Of a DNA stretch of 64,000 nt, positions 6,732-29,385 are shown piece by piece. The DNA comes from Dictyostelium discoideum (lineage: Eukaryota): the NCBI GenBank assembly GCA_000004695.1, contig CM000150.2, forward strand, positions 3,232,001-3,296,000, in the 5' to 3' direction. Position numbers and translations under genes: made by a program. Every line of letters begins with the position of its first letter. The stretch's first letter is position 1. The notes under the pieces are model-generated. The model worked only from the letters and a program-made list of their open reading frames with translations, made no database searches and was not told the DNA's origin.

Positions 6732-7823
6732 GTGCAAAAATTAAAATAATTAATTGATTATTAAAGAATTTTTTTTAAAAATTATAATATATATATTGAT
6801 ATTTCAAATATAGATTATTTAATTTTAATTTTTTTAAAGTTCAAAATTCAAATTTTAAAATTATATTTAATATCAATCTATGAGATAGTTTCAGATTAAA
6901 AGATTTTAAAAAAAAAAAAAATTATAAAAAAAATTATGTAAAAATTAAAAAAAAAAAATAATGAATATCGTATGTGGTAATGGCTTAAGAATTTAAGATA
7001 AAAATAAAAATGAAAAAAAATAAAAAAATAAAAATGTAAAATAATTATGGAAATTAAGATAAAAATAAAAATCAAAAAGACAGGTTAAATGTCATCATTG
7101 GATATTTCCAACGAATTTTTTTTTTTTCAATTTTTTATTTTTTTTTATTTTTTTTTTTTTTATTTTTTTTTTTTTTTCATTCATTTTTATTTTATTTTAT
7201 TTTTTTTCCATTCAAAAAAAAAAAACACATATATTTTGTATCTATTTATTTTTAATAAAAAAAAAGGTGAAAAAAGGTAAAAAGATTTTTTTATTTATTT
7301 TTATTTTATTTTTTATTTTATTTTTTATTTTATTTTTGTTTTTTTTTATTTAAAAAAAAAAATAAAAAAAAAAGATTTTGTTTTTTTTTTTATTTTTCAA
7401 TTTTAACACACATGCCTATACATATAAGAAGAAAATTAATCTATAAGAAGAAAATTAATCTATAAACTATTGAAGATAAATAAAATCTATTTGTGTGTGT
7501 TTTATTTTTGTATTACAACTTTTTTTTTTTTTTCATATAAAATATTGTCACTAACATCACATTTTAATCATTAAAATAAAAAATAAAATAATAATAATAA
7601 AAAACTATAAATTAAATTAATTTATTAAATTAATTTATAAATAAAAACAACAAACAAATTTTAAATTAATTTTATCATTTTTTAAAAATTCTAAAACTAA
7701 CACCTAAATCATCAATTATTAGTTATAGAAATTTTTCATTATAATAATAATAAATAATAACAATATCAATAATAATATAAATAGTAATAGGAAATATATT
7801 ATAGGTTTTTTTTTTATTGAAAA

Positions 7824-11351: not shown

Positions 11352-12143
11352 CAATCATCTTTACATTTCTATCCATATAAATATTATATATATATATATA
11401 TAATATAATTTATATATACATATCATATATATATATATATTCTCCTTTTTTTTAATTATTTATTCGATTTTATTTTTATCAACTTCAAATTTCAAATTCC
11501 TTCACTCTTTTTATACACCAAAAAAAAAAAAAAAAAAAAAAAAACAATAACTCAATCACAATTATTTTTTAATGGTAAAAAAAATGGGGGCATTGGTGGT
11601 GAGATGTTTAAAAGGGAAAAGAGAAAAATGAATGATAAAATTATCAAATTAAATTTCATCACTTGAAAGGAATATTAACATATAATATTTTTATTTTATA
11701 TTTATACATATATTCATATATATAATTATATATAAAATTATCACTACCTCCCCTTATTTATTAAAAACCACTTTATATATTATAAATTATCAATCAACAT
11801 ATATATATATACACACAACACAATACACACAAATTATTATTTTTAAATTATTTTTTTACTAACATTTTAGAAATCAAAGCTTATCAAAGAAATCGATGAT
11901 TTGAAAGCAAAATTAAAGAAATATGAAAATGATAGTGATCATCACCAAATTGAAATGGAAGATGAAACTAAATCATTAAAAGATAGAATTGATGATTTAT
12001 CAAATAAATTACAAAATGAAAAGAATTTAACAAAACACCTTCAATCACAATTAAACTCAATTAATAATGAAAGTGATGACCAAGCTCCATTAATTGGTGG
12101 CCATGTTAAACAAAAGAAGAGAGGTTGTTGTACAATTCAATAA
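7824..12143 (+). CDS. EF-hand (about 4 EF-hands) / long coiled-coil protein with a C-terminal CAAX box (CCTIQ). Exons approx 7824..7958, 8082..11303, 11871..12143; about 1209 aa.
   Basis: EF-hand loops: FDTRSTGYLEYDQL, FDTDKDGRISLDEF, FDKDGDGLVSIEQL, DGSKTISFENF. There is then about 700 aa of heptad-rich Q/E/K/L sequence. Exon 1 ends in a GTAGGT donor and exon 2 follows an ...AAAAAG acceptor in frame. Exon 2 ends GAAAAG|GTAAGC. The last intron is unusually long (about 567 nt, TA-rich) and ends TTTTAG; exon 3 continues the coiled coil and ends CCTIQ*. The last intron is an inference. Confidence 0.6.
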
Positions 12144-21075: not shown

Positions 21076-22144
21076 CTAATCAACATTTTCAAATATAAAT
21101 CTTTCAAACAATTTCAATAATTTACAGAATGATAAATGTTGACATATATAGATTGTGTAGGTGATTCGTTCTGGTGAAATCGATTTGAAATTTTCATAAC
21201 TTAAACTTTCATAGCTTGTAAAATAAACCAATTTCAATACATATTCTAGTGACTCATAATTTAAATAACCTTCTTCAACCAATTCCCATTCTGTACGATT
21301 AACTGAAAATATATTTTTAAAAAAATCTGAATTCTTTGATAATACTTCTTTGTGTACCTCTAATATTTTTTTATCAATTATTAACTCGAAATCGATTTCT
21401 CACCATTGATTGATAATTTATTATTATTATTATTGACGTTGATACTGAGACTATTATCAAAATTAATTTGTTGAAAATGTTGAGGTGGTAATGATTGAAC
21501 TGGGGAAGAATCAAATAAACAAAAAATATTACTATTACTATTAGAATTACTATTACAATTGTTATTATTATTTATTACCAAAGACTGTTTATTTGTTAAT
21601 ACCCAATTGCTTGATGATGTATTACTATTTTCAATTGATTTTACACTGATATCTTTTTTAATAAAACAAAATGATTCTTTATTTGAACTATTATTTTGAT
21701 TGTTATTATCATTATCACTATTACTATTATCACTATTATTACTATTATTGATTTGAAAATTTTCACAAAGTTTGAAAGTACAATTAAAAGTATTATTGTC
21801 TTGATTTGAACCAAATTCATTAAAATTTCCACCATTCATTATACATACTATACATAATTTACCAAAACCAATTGTATATTCACTTAAATCCATCTCTAAA
21901 TTGAATATGCTACCAAGTATTTTATCTATTGGTAATTTGTAGAAATTCCTCTTTACATATTCTGTAACATTTTTGTCTTTATTACCCTTAAAAAATTCAT
22001 TTCCAATGTAAAGATCTATACCTTTTTCTGTTGAATCCAATGAAAAACTAAATTGAGTTAAGCATCTTGTTATCACTACATTTTTACCAAATTCCCATGA
22101 CCAAATACAAAGACCATTATCATTCTTGTCAAAATAACACCTAA

Positions 22145-22181
<37 letters not shown>

Positions 22182-22603
22182 TTAATAAAAATTGAAATTA
22201 ATAATTTTTAAATAAATAAATTTATACAATACTTTTTATGAAAATGAACATTATCACAATAATATAATTGATTATTTAAAATTGTTTCATTTTTATTACA
22301 AATTTTAATTAATTTATTTTTATTAAATTTTGGTTCATAGCATATTTGATGGTATGAATAATGATTTTTATTTTTATTTATATTATTTATTATTGAATTT
22401 TTATTATTATTTTTATTATTATAATTTATTAAATTTTTATTTTTATTATTATTATTTTTAAAATCTGATTCAATATTTAATTTTATTTTATCAAATTGAT
22501 TTAATATTAAACTGGGTATATTATTATTTTCCTCCCCTAATTTTATATTATTACTGTTATTAATATTATCTGTATTATCACTATTTAATGAAAAAGATGC
22601 CAT
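21076..22603 (-). CDS. BTB/POZ-domain protein, paralogue 2. Exon 1 is 22603..~22237; the intron is ~22236..22147; exon 2 runs ~22146 down to 21076. A 2-nt frame offset (or less likely a 44-nt micro-intron) sits at ~21385-21400, at the junction between the N-domain and the BTB.
   Basis: N-domain: RCYFDKNDNGLCIWSWEFGKNVVITRCLTQFSFSLDSTEKGIDLYIGNEFF, paralogous to 18824..20752. BTB: EIDFELIIDKKILEVHKEVLSKNSDFFKNIF...YVLKLVYF. Removing the 2 nt at ...AATG|GT|GAGAAATC joins the frames as ...SINENEIDFE.... Confidence 0.55.
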
Positions 22604-23199
22604 TTTTTTTTTTTTTTTTTTTAAAGGCAATGTATATTTATATTATAATTATTATTTGTAAATAAAAATAGGGGAAATAAAAAAGTTTAAATATATAAAA
22701 AAAAAAAAATAAAAAATATTTATAGGCTTCATAATAATAAATTTTAAAAAAAAATAAAATTTTTTAATTTGGATCAATAGATGAATTATGTTAAAATTTC
22801 CTAAAATAAACATCCATCATTTTCCTTTTTTTTAAAGAAAAATATTTTGTTTTTTTTTTTTTTTTTTTTTTTTTTTTTGGATATTTAATAATAAGATTTT
22901 ATCTGGGGGTCATTGATGATTGTTTATTTTAGGAGACTTTATAATAAAAAATGAAAATCTCTTAGCTGATTGGTTATATCCAATTTTTTATTAATTTTTT
23001 TTTTTTTTTTCCTAAATATTTTTTTTTTTTTATTTTTTTTTTTTTATATATAAAGTTTATTTAAAAGATTAGCATTACATTTTATTATTTAATTTGATTA
23101 TGTGTTGTATATGTATTTTTTGATATATTTTTATTTATTTTAAAATTGTTGAATTAATTTAGTTCCATCATTGCCTTGTTTAAAAAAAAAAATTTTAAA

Positions 23200-24294
23200 G
23201 GGTTGAGTATAATTTTAATGTTTGCTCTTGATGACGTGAGGGGTGAGCAGTGAATGTGTAGAATTTTTTTTTTTTTTTTTAGTTTTCATATTGAACAAAT
23301 AATAAATTTTTTTTTTTTCAAAGTTATTTGATCTGAATTTGTTGGAAATATGTAAATTTTTTTTTTTTTTTTTTTTTTTTTTATTCAGTTTTGATGATAT
23401 TTAAAATTAAATGTATGAATAATAGTTTTTTTATAATATCAACTAATCAATGTTTATTCATTAAAGGATATAAATAATAGTTTGTTTTGTTTTTTAAGTA
23501 CCAGCTAATATTTTAAAAATTAAATAAAGAAATTAAGAATGAGGGTTTTTCGCTTTACAATTGATTGCGGATCAAACCCACATGTTATGAATTATTAATT
23601 CCATTGTGTTTCTATATGCCAAGGTTCTGTTAAAATGAAATTTTTTTTTTTTTTTTTTTTTGATATTAATTATTAATAATTATATTATTTAGAGTTAAAT
23701 AAATTGATCCACAATTACTCTATTTGGTAGGCTGTGTTTGGTATACTGTATTCGTTGATATTTTGATATTTAATATTTTTAATTTGTTTGATGTATTCTC
23801 ATTTACAAATTGAAAGTGTTCCTCTTGACTACATATATAAAGTAAAATTTTTTAATTTATTTATGTAGTTCAAGGTTGCAGATTTATACCATTTTTTGAG
23901 AACAATATCGTAGTTTAATATAGCGTCTTGAATTTTGTAATCACTGTAGAGTTGATGATAAAATCATATCTGATGTAATATCAAAGGAACTCACAATTAA
24001 TATTATATTAATGCTGTAAAGCATGAATCAAAACTAACTTTTTTATTTCATTTTTTCAGTTTTTATAATTTTTAAGTTTTCCTTATTTCCGACCATAAAG
24101 CTTTTAACAAACACTAAAATATATAAAATTAAATAAATTAATTATTATTTTAATTATTATTGTTCAATTGTTAATTATTATTCTTATTGACATTCCTATT
24201 ATTAATTTTTTTTTTTTTTAGATATTAATTAATTAGTTACTTGATCTTTATTTAGATCTTTAGTTATAATAAGTGTTTATTTTGGTTTTATGTG

Positions 24295-24328
<34 letters not shown>

Positions 24329-24700
24329 TTGTTTTACATAAATTGATCTACAAAAATTTTGTTACTGTATCCCAAGTAATCATTAGCATTCGGATTATAT
24401 TTTTAATGTATTCGTTTTAGTTGTGGATTAACTGAGGATCTTTAATCAAAGATATTTTAAAGTTTTTGATTTTATAGATGTAATCTAGCGTGGCTGATTT
24501 GTACCATTTGGTAGTCTAATTCTTCATTTTGAACTTTGATGTCACTGTATAGTTGATTGCAAATCCAGATCCAGACTTGATGTAGTATTAGTGCTATAAT
24601 GTTTTTATATGAAAATGATTTGGAGAGATCATAGTTTGTTTGGTGTTATAAAGCAATTAAGTGAGGTTTATGAATATTATTAATTTTATGATTATTAAAA
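23200..24700. repeat. Moderately GC-rich, non-coding modular repeat block downstream of the tRNA. It contains two diverged direct repeat units (about 23840..24060 and 24440..24680) and poly-T runs at 23266, 23350 and 23641. It may be a TRE3-type or other tRNA-associated element remnant.
   Basis: Repeat units share cagatttataccatttt.../ctgatttgtaccattt... and cttgaattttgtaatcactgtagagttgatg/cattttgaactttgatgtcactgtatagttgattg. There are no ORFs. The block ends about 100 bp from the tRNA 3' end, the distance at which Dictyostelium TRE3 elements are known to insert. Element identity is not established. Confidence 0.35.
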
Positions 24701-24789
24701 ACTTATTAATATTAAACAATGTAATTCATTTCAAAATCTCGAATGTGGATTTTGGGTAATCGATCCAACGATCTATCATTCGCCTTGCA

Positions 24790-24804
24790 AAAAAAAAAAA
24801 AAAT
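24790..24804 (-). terminator. Pol III terminator: an oligo-T run on the tRNA strand immediately 3' of the tRNA.
   Basis: The plus strand shows an A14-15 run directly abutting the tRNA 3' end, which is T14-15 on the minus strand. Confidence 0.6.
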
Positions 24805-24877
24805 TGCTCGATGCAGGGATCGAACCTGCGACCGTGGCGTTATTAGCACCACGCTCTGCCGACTGAGCTAATCGAGC
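24805..24877 (-). tRNA. tRNA-Ile, anticodon AAU.
   Basis: The reverse complement reads GCTCGAT-TA-GCTCAGTCGGCAGAGC-G-TGGTG-CTAATAA-CGCCA-CGGTC-GCAGG-TTCGATC-CCTGC-ATCGAGC-A. All stems pair in a canonical cloverleaf, A and B boxes are present, and the anticodon loop is CU-AAU-AA. Confidence 0.9.
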
Positions 24878-24927
24878 CATTTTGATATTTTAGAAATAAA
24901 GTTACTCTATAAAATTAATAAATAAAA

Positions 24928-25757
24928 AGAAAGGAGCAGAAGAGACTATGAAATTGGAGGCCTGCAACTCTGGAATATGGCAACCAGATCCAATGCCCAG
25001 AAAGCATGGATATACGAACAATACCTCAGAGAAAAAGACGACCAGAACTGCCCTCCACATATGAAAGCCTGGAAGTTGTTGCACCACCCAAGAGAGCGAA
25101 TTACTCTCAAACTAAACCAAGTCAAACCCAAATACAAAAACAAACAAAAATTAAAAGTAATCTATAGAAACATGATGGATATCAAATACAAGGGATGGAA
25201 CAAACACCAGCCAACAACAGGTCAAAAACTGATTCAAAAGAACATTAATCACCCAACTCTACCATTTAGAGAAGCCAGATCAATAACAACTATCAAAGGA
25301 AGAGACTTAGCATGGAGGTATCTACTCAAGGCACTTCCAAAACACCATGTGGAGAATTGCCACTCATGTAAAGAAGAAGAGTCGTCTATGCACATCTTCT
25401 TCGAATGCAAATCAATAAAACAGGATATCGACTCAATCTATCAAAAGGTCTGTAAAGACTCTAACAACACTTACCACGGTCCATGGAGCGAAAAAGTTCT
25501 CGGAAAACTACTCACACCATTCTCATCAAATCTGATAGGAGCCATTATGGAATCGATATGGTACAGAAGAAACCAAATAAAATTCAACGATAACACTACA
25601 ATAATAACAGAGAACCAAATAATTCATAAAATCAAAGGCTTTCCAGCATTTGATGTGAATCCTTGATAGTGAGTTTTCTTTTTCCGACTTCCAGACTTCC
25701 ATATGTGGAGGGCAGTTCTGGTCGTCTTTTTCTCTGAGGTATATAACACCAACTACT

Positions 25758-25797
<40 letters not shown>
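24928..25797 (+). mobile_element. 5'-truncated TRE5-type (tRNA-gene-targeted, non-LTR/LINE-like) retrotransposon fragment. It comprises the ORF2 C-terminal region, a 3' UTR and an A27 tail.
   Basis: GC-normal sequence begins about 50 bp upstream of the tRNA 5' end, the characteristic TRE5 distance, and is oriented away from the tRNA. The ORF 24932..25666 carries a CCHC-like HIFFECKSIKQD...C zinc-knuckle tail typical of LINE ORF2 C-termini. The element ends in A27 at 25771..25797. Subfamily (A, B or C) not determined. Confidence 0.65.
24932..25666 (+). CDS. Truncated retroelement ORF2 C-terminal fragment of about 245 aa (no RT core present).
   Basis: The frame opens at the truncation point at about 24930, with the first ATG at 24977. 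Sequence: ...HHVENCHSCKEEESSMHIFFECKSIKQDIDSIYQKVC... The stop is at 25666. Confidence 0.55.
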   Translation, partial: RSRRDYEIGGLQLWNMATRSNAQKAWIYEQYLREKDDQNCPPHMKAWKLLHHPRERITLKLNQVKPKYKNKQKLKVIYRNMMDIKYKGWNKHQPTTGQKLIQKNINHPTLPFREARSITTIKGRDLAWRYLLKALPKHHVENCHSCKEEESSMHIFFECKSIKQDIDSIYQKVCKDSNNTYHGPWSEKVLGKLLTPFSSNLIGAIMESIWYRRNQIKFNDNTTIITENQIIHKIKGFPAFDVNP

Positions 25798-25800
<3 letters not shown>

Positions 25801-26879
25801 ATAACAATAATAATAATAATATAATAATAATAATAATATAATAATAATAATAATAAAAAAATAAGAATAAAATAAAAAAAAAAAAAATATAAAAAAAAAA
25901 AAAAACTACAAATAAACTCTCCTAGAACACACTCAAATTGAGTGATGTTATTAAAAAAAAAAAATTAATAGATATTAAATATGCATATTACATTACTAAT
26001 TATAGTTGACACACATTTAAATAATATAATAATAATAATAATAATAATACTGTCAGCTCATTATGAATAATATAAATACTAAAGAATAATTTTATAAACA
26101 ATATTGAATATTATAAATATAAATTAATATTAAATAAAGATAACAAGGTATTATTCAATTATATAATTATTAATTATATATATTTATAAAGCTAACAAGC
26201 TTTATTACATTTTGGTCAGTTTTTGCTTAAAAATTTCCGCGACAGCATTTCCAATTAAAAAAAAAACTTCTGTGTATTCTAAAAAACTAACCCTTTCAGA
26301 GGCCCTGTAAATACATTACAAATAAAAGAGATATAGCGTCTCAAGGAGAAGCAACTAACAATTGCGCTATTCAATTAAAAAAAAAAAAAAAAAAAAAAAA
26401 GTCCTTATATTGAATTTTTATATTTAAATGATTCATAAAAAGCTCCATAAATTTTTAAAACCTTTGTTTTTTTTTTTTTGTTAACTGCAATCTTTTTAAA
26501 AGTTGTTATTAAAAAAAGATTAACACTTTATATTCATAGAATTCGATTCGTTATTGTTTTTTTAATATTAAATAAAAATGATTAATTTAATATAAAAAAA
26601 AATTTATAGCAAAAAAAAAAAAAAAAAAAAAAAAAAGAAACTACTACGAAAGTTGTTTTCATTCTTTTATTTAAATAATAATTGAGCTGAACTTAATTTC
26701 TTTATACTAAAATTTATAAAATAATTTGCTTTGTTGATATTTTGATAAAATTATTCCTAAAAAATTCTATTCTTTTAAAATTCGAAGAACATTACCTCAA
26801 TAAATAAGAAATCGCTACAAGAATCTTGAAAATATAAGAAAATTTAATCTCGATCGTTTTTTTAAAAAAGAAAAAAAAA

Positions 26880-27000
26880 ACCAACTTATCAAAAAAAAAA
26901 ATAAAAAAACTGGTATGAATCGAGAAAATGAAAAAAAAAAAAAACTGGTGTGGATTGAGAAAATGAAAAAAAAAAAACTGGTATGAATCGAGAAAATGAA
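26880..27000. repeat. Three tandem copies of a ~38-bp unit, ctggtatgaatcgagaaaatgaaaaaaaaaaaa.
   Basis: Direct inspection shows units at about 26901, 26942 and 26980; the middle copy is variant (ctggtgtggattgag). Confidence 0.6.
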
Positions 27001-27243
27001 AAAAAATAAAAAAAAATAAAAAATAAAAAAGGTTGAATTTCTTTGTGGGTGTCATCATCCAAGGATTATTTTTGGTCATAGCTTGGAAAACATCATGAGC
27101 ATAAACAAATCAACTTTTGAAAATAACAGATAATGATAGAAATTTTCGAACCCCAAATTAATACTTCCTTGAAATCCAGAGTTTTAGACCAACTGTTTTT
27201 AAGTTTCCCAAAAATCAAAAAAAAAATATTAAAAAAAAAGTTT

Positions 27244-27284
<41 letters not shown>

Positions 27285-27660
27285 AAAAAAAAAAAAATAA
27301 AATATCACGATATCTATTTGTGTGTGAAAACACCACAACACAACACAATTGTAAATAATCAAAAAAATAAAAAATAAAAAAATAATAATAACATAAAAAA
27401 AAAAGAAAAAAAATTTAAAATACAAAAAATAAAAAAATAAAAAAACAAAAAATAAAATAAAAAATAAAATAATTAAAAAATAAATAAATAATTTTAAAAT
27501 TAAAATTATATAAATATAAATATAAAATAATTATAATAATATAAAATAAAATAATTTTAAAAAAAAAAAAAAACAAAACACACAATCAAAAAAAAAAAAA
27601 TCTTAAATCAAAAAAATAAAAAAAAAAAATCTCTATATATAAGAAAAAAAGAAAAAAAAA

Positions 27661-29385
27661 ATGTTTAGTTCAATTATGTTTAAAAAAAAACCCAAACAAA
27701 ACTTAAATGAAAATGAAATAACATCACAATCAACCACAACAACATCAACTTTATCAGATTCAAAACCAAGTGAAAAGAAAATAAAAGATAATAAAAATGA
27801 TAAATTTAAAATTAATGAAAATGATACAATAGTTGAAATTGAGTGGGAATCTGATATTCAACAAAAATATGATTTAATAGCATTATATGATAATGATACA
27901 AATGTAATTGATGATTATATATGGCATTGGAAAATAAATGATGAATATACCTATAATAATAATAATACAAATATAATTAGAGATCCAAATAAAAATTATT
28001 ATATAAAATATTGGAGAATTGATGACAATAATAATGGAATTAATCATCATCATCATTATAATCATCATCATCATATAAATAATCATCATCATAATCATAT
28101 TAAAACGAATCATCATAGTCTTCCACCTAATCTTCATTTATCACCACTTCATAATAATAATCATCATCGTCATCATAGTCACCAATTTCCAAAAGTATCA
28201 ATTAATAATGTTTATAAACAAATTCATAATTATAAATTAAAAAATCATTTTATAAGGCAACAATTTCAAAATAATTCAACAACAAATCAAGATACAATTA
28301 AAATTAAATTATCGCATTTTGAAGAAAGAAATCTATTAAAATCAGTAGATTATTCAGGAGAGATGTTTAAACAATACTCAAATTGGATGACAAATAATTG
28401 GGAAAGAATTAAAGATAAAATGGTTAGAGACCTAGTTTTACCAGGTAGTCATGATGCTGCAACCTATGGAATTAAATCAAGTTCGTTAAGAGTACCAGGT
28501 GATAAAGTACCATCATTTATACCAAATTCAATTGTATCAAAATGGTCAAAAACTCAAAGTGGAAATATATTTAAACAATTAACAATGGGTTACCGTTATT
28601 TTGATCTTAGAGTTGCACCATATCCAGTCACTGGTAAATTATATATTTATCATGCAATGTTTTCAGTTCCAGTTTCCGAAGTTTTAGATGATATAGTTAA
28701 ATTTATAAAAAATACAAATTATTATCAACAACCAAATAGTAGTAATAATAATGATGAAAAACAACAATTACAACAACAACAACAATTATTTAAAAAAGAA
28801 ATAATTTTATTACATTGGAATCATTTAGGATATTTATCAATTGAACAACATCAAGAATTACAATTAATGATTAAATCCAAATTAGATGGTATGTTGGCAA
28901 ATAGACAATTAGGTAACAATGTAAAAGTTAGAGAATTAGAATTTACACCAATTATAAATATTTATGATGATAATGGTTTAAAGAAACGTATTATAAATGA
29001 TGATGGTAAAAAAAGTAAACAACCATTTGATTCAATTCAAAATGAACCATTATTTTGGTACTCCAATAAATCGTTGGTATCAAATTATGATTCAAATCAA
29101 TTTCATACAAGTAAAGATGTAATATCATTTCTATCAAGAGAAGTTACCTATAATCATAAAGATAGATTTTGGGTAGCTCAATGTATCTTAACAATTGATT
29201 CAAAAAAATTATTACATATCACTACAAATTCATTATTGGACTGGAATCATTCTGAATTTCCAAAATTTTTAAAGTTTTTTGAAAATTTGGAAGAAAAAAA
29301 AGTTCCAACAAATATTATAATGACTGATTTTTGTACTCATTATCCAATAACTGATTACGCAATTAGAAGAAATATAAATGAATAA
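27661..29385 (+). CDS. PI-PLC X-domain-containing protein (PLC-like phosphodiesterase, TIM-barrel). Single exon, 574 aa, with an N-terminal Asn/His-rich extension.
   Basis: Catalytic X-box region LVLPGSHDAATYGI ... QLTMGYRYFDLRVAP ... YIYHAMF. His-rich low-complexity stretch HHHHYNHHHHINNHHHNH. Confidence 0.7.
   Translation: MFSSIMFKKKPKQNLNENEITSQSTTTTSTLSDSKPSEKKIKDNKNDKFKINENDTIVEIEWESDIQQKYDLIALYDNDTNVIDDYIWHWKINDEYTYNNNNTNIIRDPNKNYYIKYWRIDDNNNGINHHHHYNHHHHINNHHHNHIKTNHHSLPPNLHLSPLHNNNHHRHHSHQFPKVSINNVYKQIHNYKLKNHFIRQQFQNNSTTNQDTIKIKLSHFEERNLLKSVDYSGEMFKQYSNWMTNNWERIKDKMVRDLVLPGSHDAATYGIKSSSLRVPGDKVPSFIPNSIVSKWSKTQSGNIFKQLTMGYRYFDLRVAPYPVTGKLYIYHAMFSVPVSEVLDDIVKFIKNTNYYQQPNSSNNNDEKQQLQQQQQLFKKEIILLHWNHLGYLSIEQHQELQLMIKSKLDGMLANRQLGNNVKVRELEFTPIINIYDDNGLKKRIINDDGKKSKQPFDSIQNEPLFWYSNKSLVSNYDSNQFHTSKDVISFLSREVTYNHKDRFWVAQCILTIDSKKLLHITTNSLLDWNHSEFPKFLKFFENLEEKKVPTNIIMTDFCTHYPITDYAIRRNINE

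Follow-up and report, generated by a model that had tools for sequence, protein, structure and literature searches.

The targeting of transfer RNA (tRNA) genes by the retrotransposons TRE5, TRE3 and DGLT-A, with its distances, orientations and tandem stacking, is already established for Dictyostelium discoideum. TRE5 elements integrate 44-54 bp upstream of a tRNA gene and in the opposite orientation, DGLT-A elements 13-33 bp upstream in either orientation, and TRE3 elements 40-150 bp downstream in the same orientation (PMC5911963); for strain AX4, the published share of tRNA genes with a TRE is 61%, and 13% have both types. A related situation is found in yeast, where the solo long terminal repeats (LTRs) of Ty3 and Ty1 (sigma and delta) likewise mark genes transcribed by RNA polymerase III (Pol III) as safe-haven landing pads that gather nested and solo-LTR remnants, but in another host, with other element families and without the downstream-side targeting that TRE3 shows in Dictyostelium. 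Here we describe such a locus from chromosome 1 of D. discoideum AX4, in a stretch of 64,000 nucleotides (hereafter the window; G+C content 21%) whose single tRNA-Ile gene has very probably been struck repeatedly by three classes of tRNA-targeting retrotransposon, of which layered dead fragments remain.

The gene, tRNA-Ile(AAT) (that is, AAU), lies on the minus strand at 24805-24877, where it is predicted by ARAGORN and scores 64.1 bits against Rfam model RF00005; it is the sole match at the gathering threshold in an Rfam scan of the 64 kb, with no second Pol III gene detected. Both results agree with an initial annotation of the window, which had taken this tRNA-Ile(AAU) to be genuine and the only Pol III gene present, and which had proposed at least two independent integrations targeted to it. 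We count six or more, as the locus carries remnants of at least six retrotransposon insertions, distributed over both sides of the gene. Three targeting rules are found together at this one tRNA gene, with insertion about 14 and about 47 bp upstream of it and about 104 bp downstream. The locus also displays a target-site duplication, the order in which elements were nested, empty sites, and hits that different strains received independently. In this sense it illustrates, in compact textbook form, how retroelements in a gene-dense genome are directed to safe sites beside Pol III genes; the biology is known, and the case is an ordinary one that happens to be unusually complete and brings no new principle. 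For comparison, we used the corresponding loci of a lab strain (L003), of three wild strains of the D. discoideum group (L004, L007 and L008), of strain ACTFIZ, labelled D. cf. discoideum (L005), and of D. citrinum (L006); the tRNA-Ile gene is kept at the same syntenic position in L003, L004, L007, L008 and L006.

Upstream of the gene, positions 24925-25964 on the plus strand hold a 5'-truncated and rearranged TRE5 element, most likely of the TRE5-B family, which is recognisable by homology to the second open reading frame (ORF2) of these elements and is colinear with a full-length copy at another locus (L001). Its start is separated by 47 nt from the tRNA 5' end at 24877, in head-to-head, opposite orientation, with the truncated 5' end facing the tRNA, an arrangement that recurs at L001 and at three further loci (L002, L009 and L010). 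ORF2 homology spans 24926-25636 on the plus strand (tblastn), and the reading frame includes a C-x2-C-x7-H-x4-C motif (CHSCKEEESSMHIFFEC) whose counterpart positions do not vary among four TRE5 families, although the Pfam zf-RVT model stays below threshold on it (E 0.062). The apurinic/apyrimidinic endonuclease (APE) and reverse transcriptase (RT) parts have been lost from this copy; an RVT_1 domain is found in the related proteins P0005, P0006 and P0010. The element is flanked on the plus strand by a 14-bp target-site duplication, with a left copy at 24911-24924 (AAAATTAATAAATA) and a right copy at 25962-25975 (AAAATTAATAGATA) that are identical in 13 of 14 positions; the right copy agrees with the LTR of L005 at this position, and both represent one and the same stretch of LTR sequence.

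The 3' untranslated region (UTR) of the element, from 25761 to 25964, aligns with the 3' UTR of the full-length copy (L001, 12430-12634) at 85% identity. It opens with a run of 38 adenines (A38, 25761-25798, plus strand), whose homologous A-run in L001 directly follows the ORF2 stop and whose place is taken, in a truncated relative (L002), by an A/T-rich stretch following the ORF2 stop. The true 3' end is formed by a conserved hairpin, the trinucleotide ATT and an A12 tail at 25953-25964. This terminal stem-loop (AACACACTCAAATTGAGTGATGTT, 25926-25949, plus strand) has a predicted folding energy of -9.2 kcal/mol (RNAfold, z -3.8) and shows one compensatory change, from U-A to C-G, in L001; a sister family at L009 has the same terminal loop on a different stem. 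It parallels the essential 3' stem-loop published for TRE5-A.

For this side of the gene, the initial annotation had described a LINE-like, TRE5-type fragment about 50 bp from the tRNA and head-to-head with it, with an ORF2 zinc-knuckle C-terminus, and had suggested a search for target-site duplications, all of which is borne out by the extent of the ORF2 homology, the distance of 47 bp in opposite orientation, the cysteine-histidine motif (notwithstanding the sub-threshold Pfam match), the poly(A) end and the 14-bp duplication. Its delimitation of the element needs revision. What it read as an A27 tail is the A38 run, which is internal to the 3' UTR in intact relatives; its element end at 25797 is too early, as the actual end lies at 25964, past the terminal hairpin and the A12 tail; and its "3' UTR" at 25667-25760 consists of an inverted ORF2 segment (25636-25742, discussed below) and the last ~18 nt of ORF2. 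It had further overlooked the duplication itself, the DGLT-A solo LTR that the TRE5 element splits and an older C-module remnant at 26253-26400. A 229-aa open reading frame at 24977-25666 is 100% identical to the product of the annotated gene DDB_G0269662 across the annotated part, and this gene (25172-25666), annotated as a 164-aa "hypothetical protein", is part of a TRE5 ORF2, with its last ~10 codons coming from the inverted segment. In practical terms, its annotation describes a piece of a transposon.

The TRE5 element is nested in a solo LTR of the Ty3/gypsy-like DGLT-A. The left 34 nt of the LTR (24891-24924, plus strand) start 13-14 nt upstream of the tRNA 5' end, inside the published DGLT-A range, and the right part (25962-26209, plus strand), which ends in ...CTTTATTACA, matches both LTRs of the DGLT-A element in L005 at 85% (BLAST). 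When positions 24925-25975, that is, the TRE5 element and one copy of the duplication, are removed, the joined LTR pieces become colinear with the L005 LTR and are identical to it in 238 of 264 positions, and because this removal restores a colinear LTR, the TRE5 element must have inserted later than the LTR. The right terminus of the window LTR (ATTACA) is intact, and the left one is degenerate, with TAGAAAT instead of TGTAAT; the TTTT/TTTTG sequences flanking the LTR could be a 4-5-bp duplication and are uninformative in DNA this rich in T. At the orthologous locus of strain ACTFIZ, a complete 5.07-kb DGLT-A element (L005, 76-5142) lies 16 bp upstream of tRNA-Ile, in the opposite orientation. 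Its two LTRs, with termini TGTAAT...ATTACA, are identical in 274 of 274 positions, a single uninterrupted 1455-aa open reading frame encodes protease, RT, RNase H and integrase domains, and a primer-binding site, TGGCGACATCGTC, located 2 bp from the LTR, is the one published for DGLT-A. Judged by these features, the element looks intact and recently active; AX4, according to the literature, holds no full-length DGLT-A. The window copy agrees with DGLT-A in that its LTR is 90% identical to that of this single-ORF element with the published primer site, and in its placement 13-14 bp upstream of the tRNA; it differs in being a solo LTR with a degenerate 5' terminus, split by the later TRE5 insertion.

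Farther out, at 26253-26400 on the plus strand, lies the remnant of an old TRE5 element of A- or C-type, comprising a C-module with an A24 tail. It is identical in 111 of 142 positions to the C-module of a TRE5-A element in L007 and in 110 of 134 to the orthologous old copy at that same locus. Because copies of it are common to L004, L007 and L008, it is the oldest recognisable upstream layer, moved outward by later insertions. Between it and the solo LTR, positions 26236-26266 read ccgcgacagcatttccaatt followed by A10, resembling the last ~25 nt of a tailed C-module, and may represent an extremely truncated additional TRE5 insertion.

On the other side of the gene, a non-coding block with poly-T runs (T17, T12, T26, T21, T14 and T20) contains at least three decayed, 5'-truncated TRE3-type remnants on the minus strand, referred to here as A', B' and C', each reduced to the last ~110 codons of ORF2, a 3' UTR and an oligo(A) tail, so that some 0.3-0.5 kb is left. 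The youngest, C' (24206-24700), is nearest the tRNA, starting 104 bp past its 3' end and in the same orientation. It matches residues 947-991 of the ORF2 protein P0098 at 24636-24502 (53% identity, E 1e-15, tblastn) and also residues 994-1017, and consists of a decayed ORF2 C-terminus (24639-24438, with one frameshift), a stop codon at 24336-24334 and a 3' UTR with an internal A20 that ends in an A14 tail at 24219-24206. Remnant B' (23641-24205) matches residues 960-1009 of P0098 at 23990-23847 (46%, E 6e-8, tblastn); its ORF2 C-terminal remnant at about 24035-23699 is followed by a stop at 23698-23696, a short 3' UTR and an A21 tail at 23661-23641, and even the extreme ORF2 C-terminus is preserved at 23733-23698, where residues 1048-1059 of P0098 are represented by SLPNRVIVDQFI, ending ...DQFI-stop. 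B' has orthologues in L007 and L008 (nhmmer, E 1e-43). The oldest remnant identified, A' (23357-23640), matches residues 948-969 of P0098 at 23640-23575 (50%, E 7e-5, tblastn), in an ORF2 stretch that abuts the tail of B'; its tail is likely the A26 run at 23382-23357, which sets a provisional 3' limit. A' is common to L004, L007 and L008, and its equivalents in L007 and L008 match residues 949-969 of P0098. Two further proteins, P0100 and P0103, also match the downstream block (tblastn). At its outer side, the region 22800-22935 contains an inverted repeat, CCTAAAATAAACATCCATCAT and ATGATGATTGTTTATTTTAGG, around a T29 run, and on the minus strand ends in ...TTATTAAATATCC(A)29, like the end of a TRE3-type 3' UTR; it may be a fourth and oldest TRE3-type remnant, adjoining the start of a BTB gene.

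P0098, which belongs to a 79-member cluster, is one of the more remote RT families of D. discoideum that a profile search started from the ORF2 proteins of four TRE5 elements brought up; these families are 30-35% identical to TRE5. The family behaves as TRE3 at a lab-strain locus (L011, 767-11288), where two tandem full-length elements with an ORF1 of ~417 aa and an ORF2 of 1059 aa follow an intron-containing tRNA (Rfam, 57.8 bits) on the same strand, starting ~70 bp after it, and where an 11-bp duplication, TAAGAGATCAA, brackets the first copy. C-module remnants on the reverse strand also lie near this pair, at about 11780-12030. The 3' end of the L011 elements finds C' with an E-value of 3.6e-12 and A' with 6.5e-5 (nhmmer), and at L010 homologous 3' parts occur 60-90 nt downstream of both tRNA-Val genes (nhmmer E 1e-5 and 2e-3). 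The window remnants share with TRE3 (TRE3-A to -D) the oligo(A) tails, the tandem stacking and the homology of their ORF2 C-termini to the L011 family; they differ in being old and decayed pieces of ~0.3-0.5 kb each that we do not assign to a named family, the nearest relative sampled being P0098. The initial annotation is sustained in its view of the block as TRE3-type, non-coding DNA with poly-T runs and diverged direct repeats (59% identity in an alignment of B' with C', z = 8.0 relative to dinucleotide shuffles) and in its estimate of ~100 bp between block and tRNA 3' end. The target-site duplications that it proposed to look for were recovered in part on this side, with the proximal target copy of C' present and the distal one absent.

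The target site of C' is empty in L007, which has a single ACTTATTAATA at 7618-7628, and in L008 it is occupied by an independent TRE3-type copy of ~95 nt (7244-7345), comprising only 3' UTR and A22, within a perfect 11-bp duplication of ACTTATTAATA. As the L008 copy sits at the exact nucleotide at which C' starts (window 24700/24701) while L007 has the empty site, independent TRE3-type insertions have reused the same position.

These observations also bear on other ways of explaining the downstream block. That the three units descend from one TRE3 integration that later multiplied in place, through tandem duplication or unequal crossing-over, is a reading we consider unlikely but worth weighing, as all three ORF2 remnants start near one position of ORF2 (residues ~925-950), B' and C' agree with each other at many residues where P0098 differs, and 958 bp that lie between the homologous ORF2 motifs of A' and C' are missing from L004, an absence consistent with unequal recombination, of which such structural variation is typical. 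The clean empty C' site in L007 and the independent insertion at the same nucleotide in L008 speak for separate integrations, as do the junctions between units, which differ (A' abuts the tail of B', whereas B' is set off from the tail of C' by ~170 nt), and the lack of significant nucleotide similarity between A' and either B' or C' (z 1.1-2.1); since members of the subfamily at two tRNA-Val loci are truncated at different points, the residues shared by B' and C' can reflect their subfamily and not local copying. Against our account of the downstream side weigh, besides the common starting position, the 22 aligned residues (E 7e-5) on which A' rests, the missing distal copy of the C' target duplication in the window and the amino acid identity of the remnants to P0098, the nearest intact family sampled, which is 46-57%, such that they could come from a TRE3 lineage outside those sampled. 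That the block might instead be non-mobile DNA, an ordinary promoter or intergenic region of the BTB gene in which a tandem duplication took place long ago, we hold to be exceedingly improbable. Its copies are absent elsewhere in the window (BLASTN) and from the first loci examined (nhmmer), none of 70 TRE5-type ORF2 proteins matches it (tblastn, best E 0.02), and it is partly syntenic in sister lineages; but it holds three ORF2 C-terminal remnants homologous to TRE3-type proteins as far as the terminal ...DQFI-stop, each of which continues into a 3' UTR and then oligo(A); unrelated tRNA-Val genes have homologous 3' ends on their downstream side, and one unit has an empty site in L007. It was the tRNA-Val matches at L010 (one of them evident by eye, both recovered by nhmmer) and the tblastn matches with distant ORF2 proteins that overturned this explanation, and several TRE3-type integrations remain our preferred account.

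Family names on both sides of the gene are based on behaviour and published hallmarks, a point that weighs against them. The ORF2 piece of the upstream element corresponds to residues 729-984 of the 1056-aa P0078, at 90.6% amino acid identity; P0078 is an RT protein of a lab strain and stands for a 90% cluster with 39 members. Identity to P0005, which has an RVT_1 domain, is 73%; P0005 is encoded in the ~6-kb full-length element of L001, head-to-head with tRNA-Thr and ~50-57 bp upstream of it, and a truncated relative that has an 11-12-bp duplication (L002) starts ~46 bp upstream of tRNA-Glu. The window element fits the published TRE5 distance and orientation (PMC5911963). In the window family, the ORF2 stop is followed by an A-run, an AAT-rich stretch, further A-runs, the conserved stem-loop end of ~45 nt and poly(A). 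No C-module was found in the window element beyond A/T-rich matches, nor was a 3' B-module, in searches for which L007 (B- and C-modules) and L010 (C-module) served as positive controls: the former contains an internally deleted element in which a 134-bp C-module comes after a 3' B-module, the hallmark of TRE5-A, and the latter a full element, head-to-head upstream of tRNA-Val, with a C-module directly after ORF2, the hallmark of TRE5-C. Because TRE5-B is the sole TRE5 family without a C-module (PMC3159450), and given the abundance of the family in the lab strain, the window element is most likely TRE5-B.

That it is something else, either an unnamed fourth TRE5 lineage or a member of TRE5-A or TRE5-C, seems to us quite unlikely, less probable still than local amplification of the downstream units. 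Four ORF2 lineages with TRE5 behaviour exist in the species group and three are named in the literature, and an assignment by elimination is weakened by a second lineage without C-module (P0006/P0007, ~50% identical). This sister lineage, however, turned up in wild strains only, whereas the window is from AX4 and its family is the cluster represented by the lab-strain protein. TRE5-A and TRE5-C, for their part, both carry a C-module, which the window element lacks, and its identity to them is merely 35-37%, on which grounds we rejected either identity; in its 5' UTR, the full-length relative matches the A/B-module sequence of TRE5-A at 83-88% identity, in line with the published close relationship of the A and B families. 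Like the TRE5 elements in general (TRE5-A/DRE, -B and -C), the relatives of the putative TRE5-B copy have an L1-clade ORF2 with RT and a C-terminal CCHC motif, and the copy itself shares with them the position ~48 bp upstream, the facing 5' ends, the 5' truncation, a duplication of variable length, poly(A), the 3' stem-loop and repeat hits on one tRNA. It differs from them in its rearrangement, in which an inverted segment stands for the end of ORF2 and 57 nt are deleted, and in its nesting within a DGLT-A LTR, and from TRE5-A and TRE5-C also in having neither C-module nor 3' B-module.

The LTR and the TRE5-B copy are found only in AX4 and in the lab-strain locus L003, which is 99.5% identical; L004, L007 and L008 have neither. 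In L007 and L008 there is instead an internally deleted TRE5-A, starting 49 bp (L007) and ~70 bp (L008) upstream of tRNA-Ile, and in D. citrinum (L006) no recognisable element was found upstream of the gene. Because the strains carry different elements at this tRNA (LTR and TRE5-B in AX4 and L003, TRE5-A in L007 and L008, a full DGLT-A in L005), it was struck independently in different lineages, and the wild-strain assemblies show that the site is still polymorphic. Across positions 22000-27700, the intergenic DNA of ACTFIW and ACTFIR, both labelled "D. discoideum", is as far from AX4 (75-80% identity) as that of ACTFIY, labelled "D. cf. discoideum", and insertions shared with or absent from L004, L007 and L008 relative to the window cut across strain names.

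The observed identities, positions, orientations, duplication, nesting and relative order, and empty sites suggest the following history. On the upstream side, one or more TRE5 copies bearing a C-module would have inserted before all else that is recognisable, leaving a C-module and poly(A) at 26253-26400. A DGLT-A element would then have integrated at a distance of 13-14 bp from the tRNA, to be reduced subsequently to a solo LTR, presumably through LTR-LTR recombination. Into this LTR, 47 bp from the tRNA, a TRE5 element without C-module, most likely TRE5-B, would have entered by target-primed reverse transcription, generating the 14-bp duplication and becoming 5'-truncated within ORF2, probably because target-primed reverse transcription was incomplete; its inversion-duplication and 57-nt deletion may have arisen during integration or later. 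Downstream, at least three TRE3-type copies would have inserted in the orientation of the tRNA, the newest nearest to it. By analogy with published work on TRE5-A and Ty3-like elements, the element proteins may have been tethered to TFIIIB/TFIIIC on the tRNA gene: the TRE5 ORF1 protein binds TFIIIB subunits and TRE5-A integration needs an intact B box (PMC5911963 and related literature), DGLT-A probably uses a Ty3-like TFIIIB contact (published work), and TRE3 targets a region defined by an internal or external B box (PMC5911963).

Four points of the locus are of minor interest in their own right: the reuse of an exact site by TRE3-type elements, the apparently intact DGLT-A of a sister lineage, the gene DDB_G0269662, and the inverted ORF2 segment. 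The latter is a 107-nt inverted duplicate of an internal part of ORF2 (25636-25742, minus strand) that replaces ~200 nt of the ORF2 3' end and is followed by ~18 nt of its terminus. It matches L001 at 11627-11521 on the opposite strand (BLAST) and residues 410-448 of P0005 on the minus strand (tblastn), and its source sequence lies ~600 nt upstream within ORF2. Together with 25021-25076 it forms a 56-nt inverted repeat of 96% complementarity (repeat search). A stretch of 57 nt between two 15-nt direct repeats is missing from the forward copy and still present in the inverted one. Classic twin priming was rejected for this segment, as the inverted piece is internal and not at the 5' end. One could speculate that it is the footprint of template switching by the reverse transcriptase during target-primed reverse transcription, given its location near the 3' end, the replacement of ~200 nt and the retention of the 57 nt missing from the forward copy, but we regard this as very doubtful. 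TRE5 elements are known to make antisense transcripts, and these may have provided an alternative template. If true, template switching would be a Dictyostelium counterpart of, yet distinct from, the twin priming of mammalian L1.

Of the remaining features, two lie between the tRNA gene and the downstream block. A presumed Pol III terminator follows the gene directly (24789-24803, minus strand), as a T15 run on the tRNA strand (A15 on the plus strand). About 40-50 nt beyond the tRNA 3' end, on the tRNA (minus) strand at 24755-24766, there is a candidate external B box, GGATCGATTACC, whose core has been conserved between the window and L004, L007 and L008, within flanks that are just 70-85% identical in the alignment; it may be an external B box of the kind TRE3 elements reportedly use (PMC5911963). 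On the opposite side of the locus, the neighbouring gene, which encodes a PI-PLC X-domain protein, is DDB_G0269228, and upstream of it three tandem units of ~33 nt, each consisting of ctggtatgaatcgagaaaatg and then an A-run, are found at 26911-27005.

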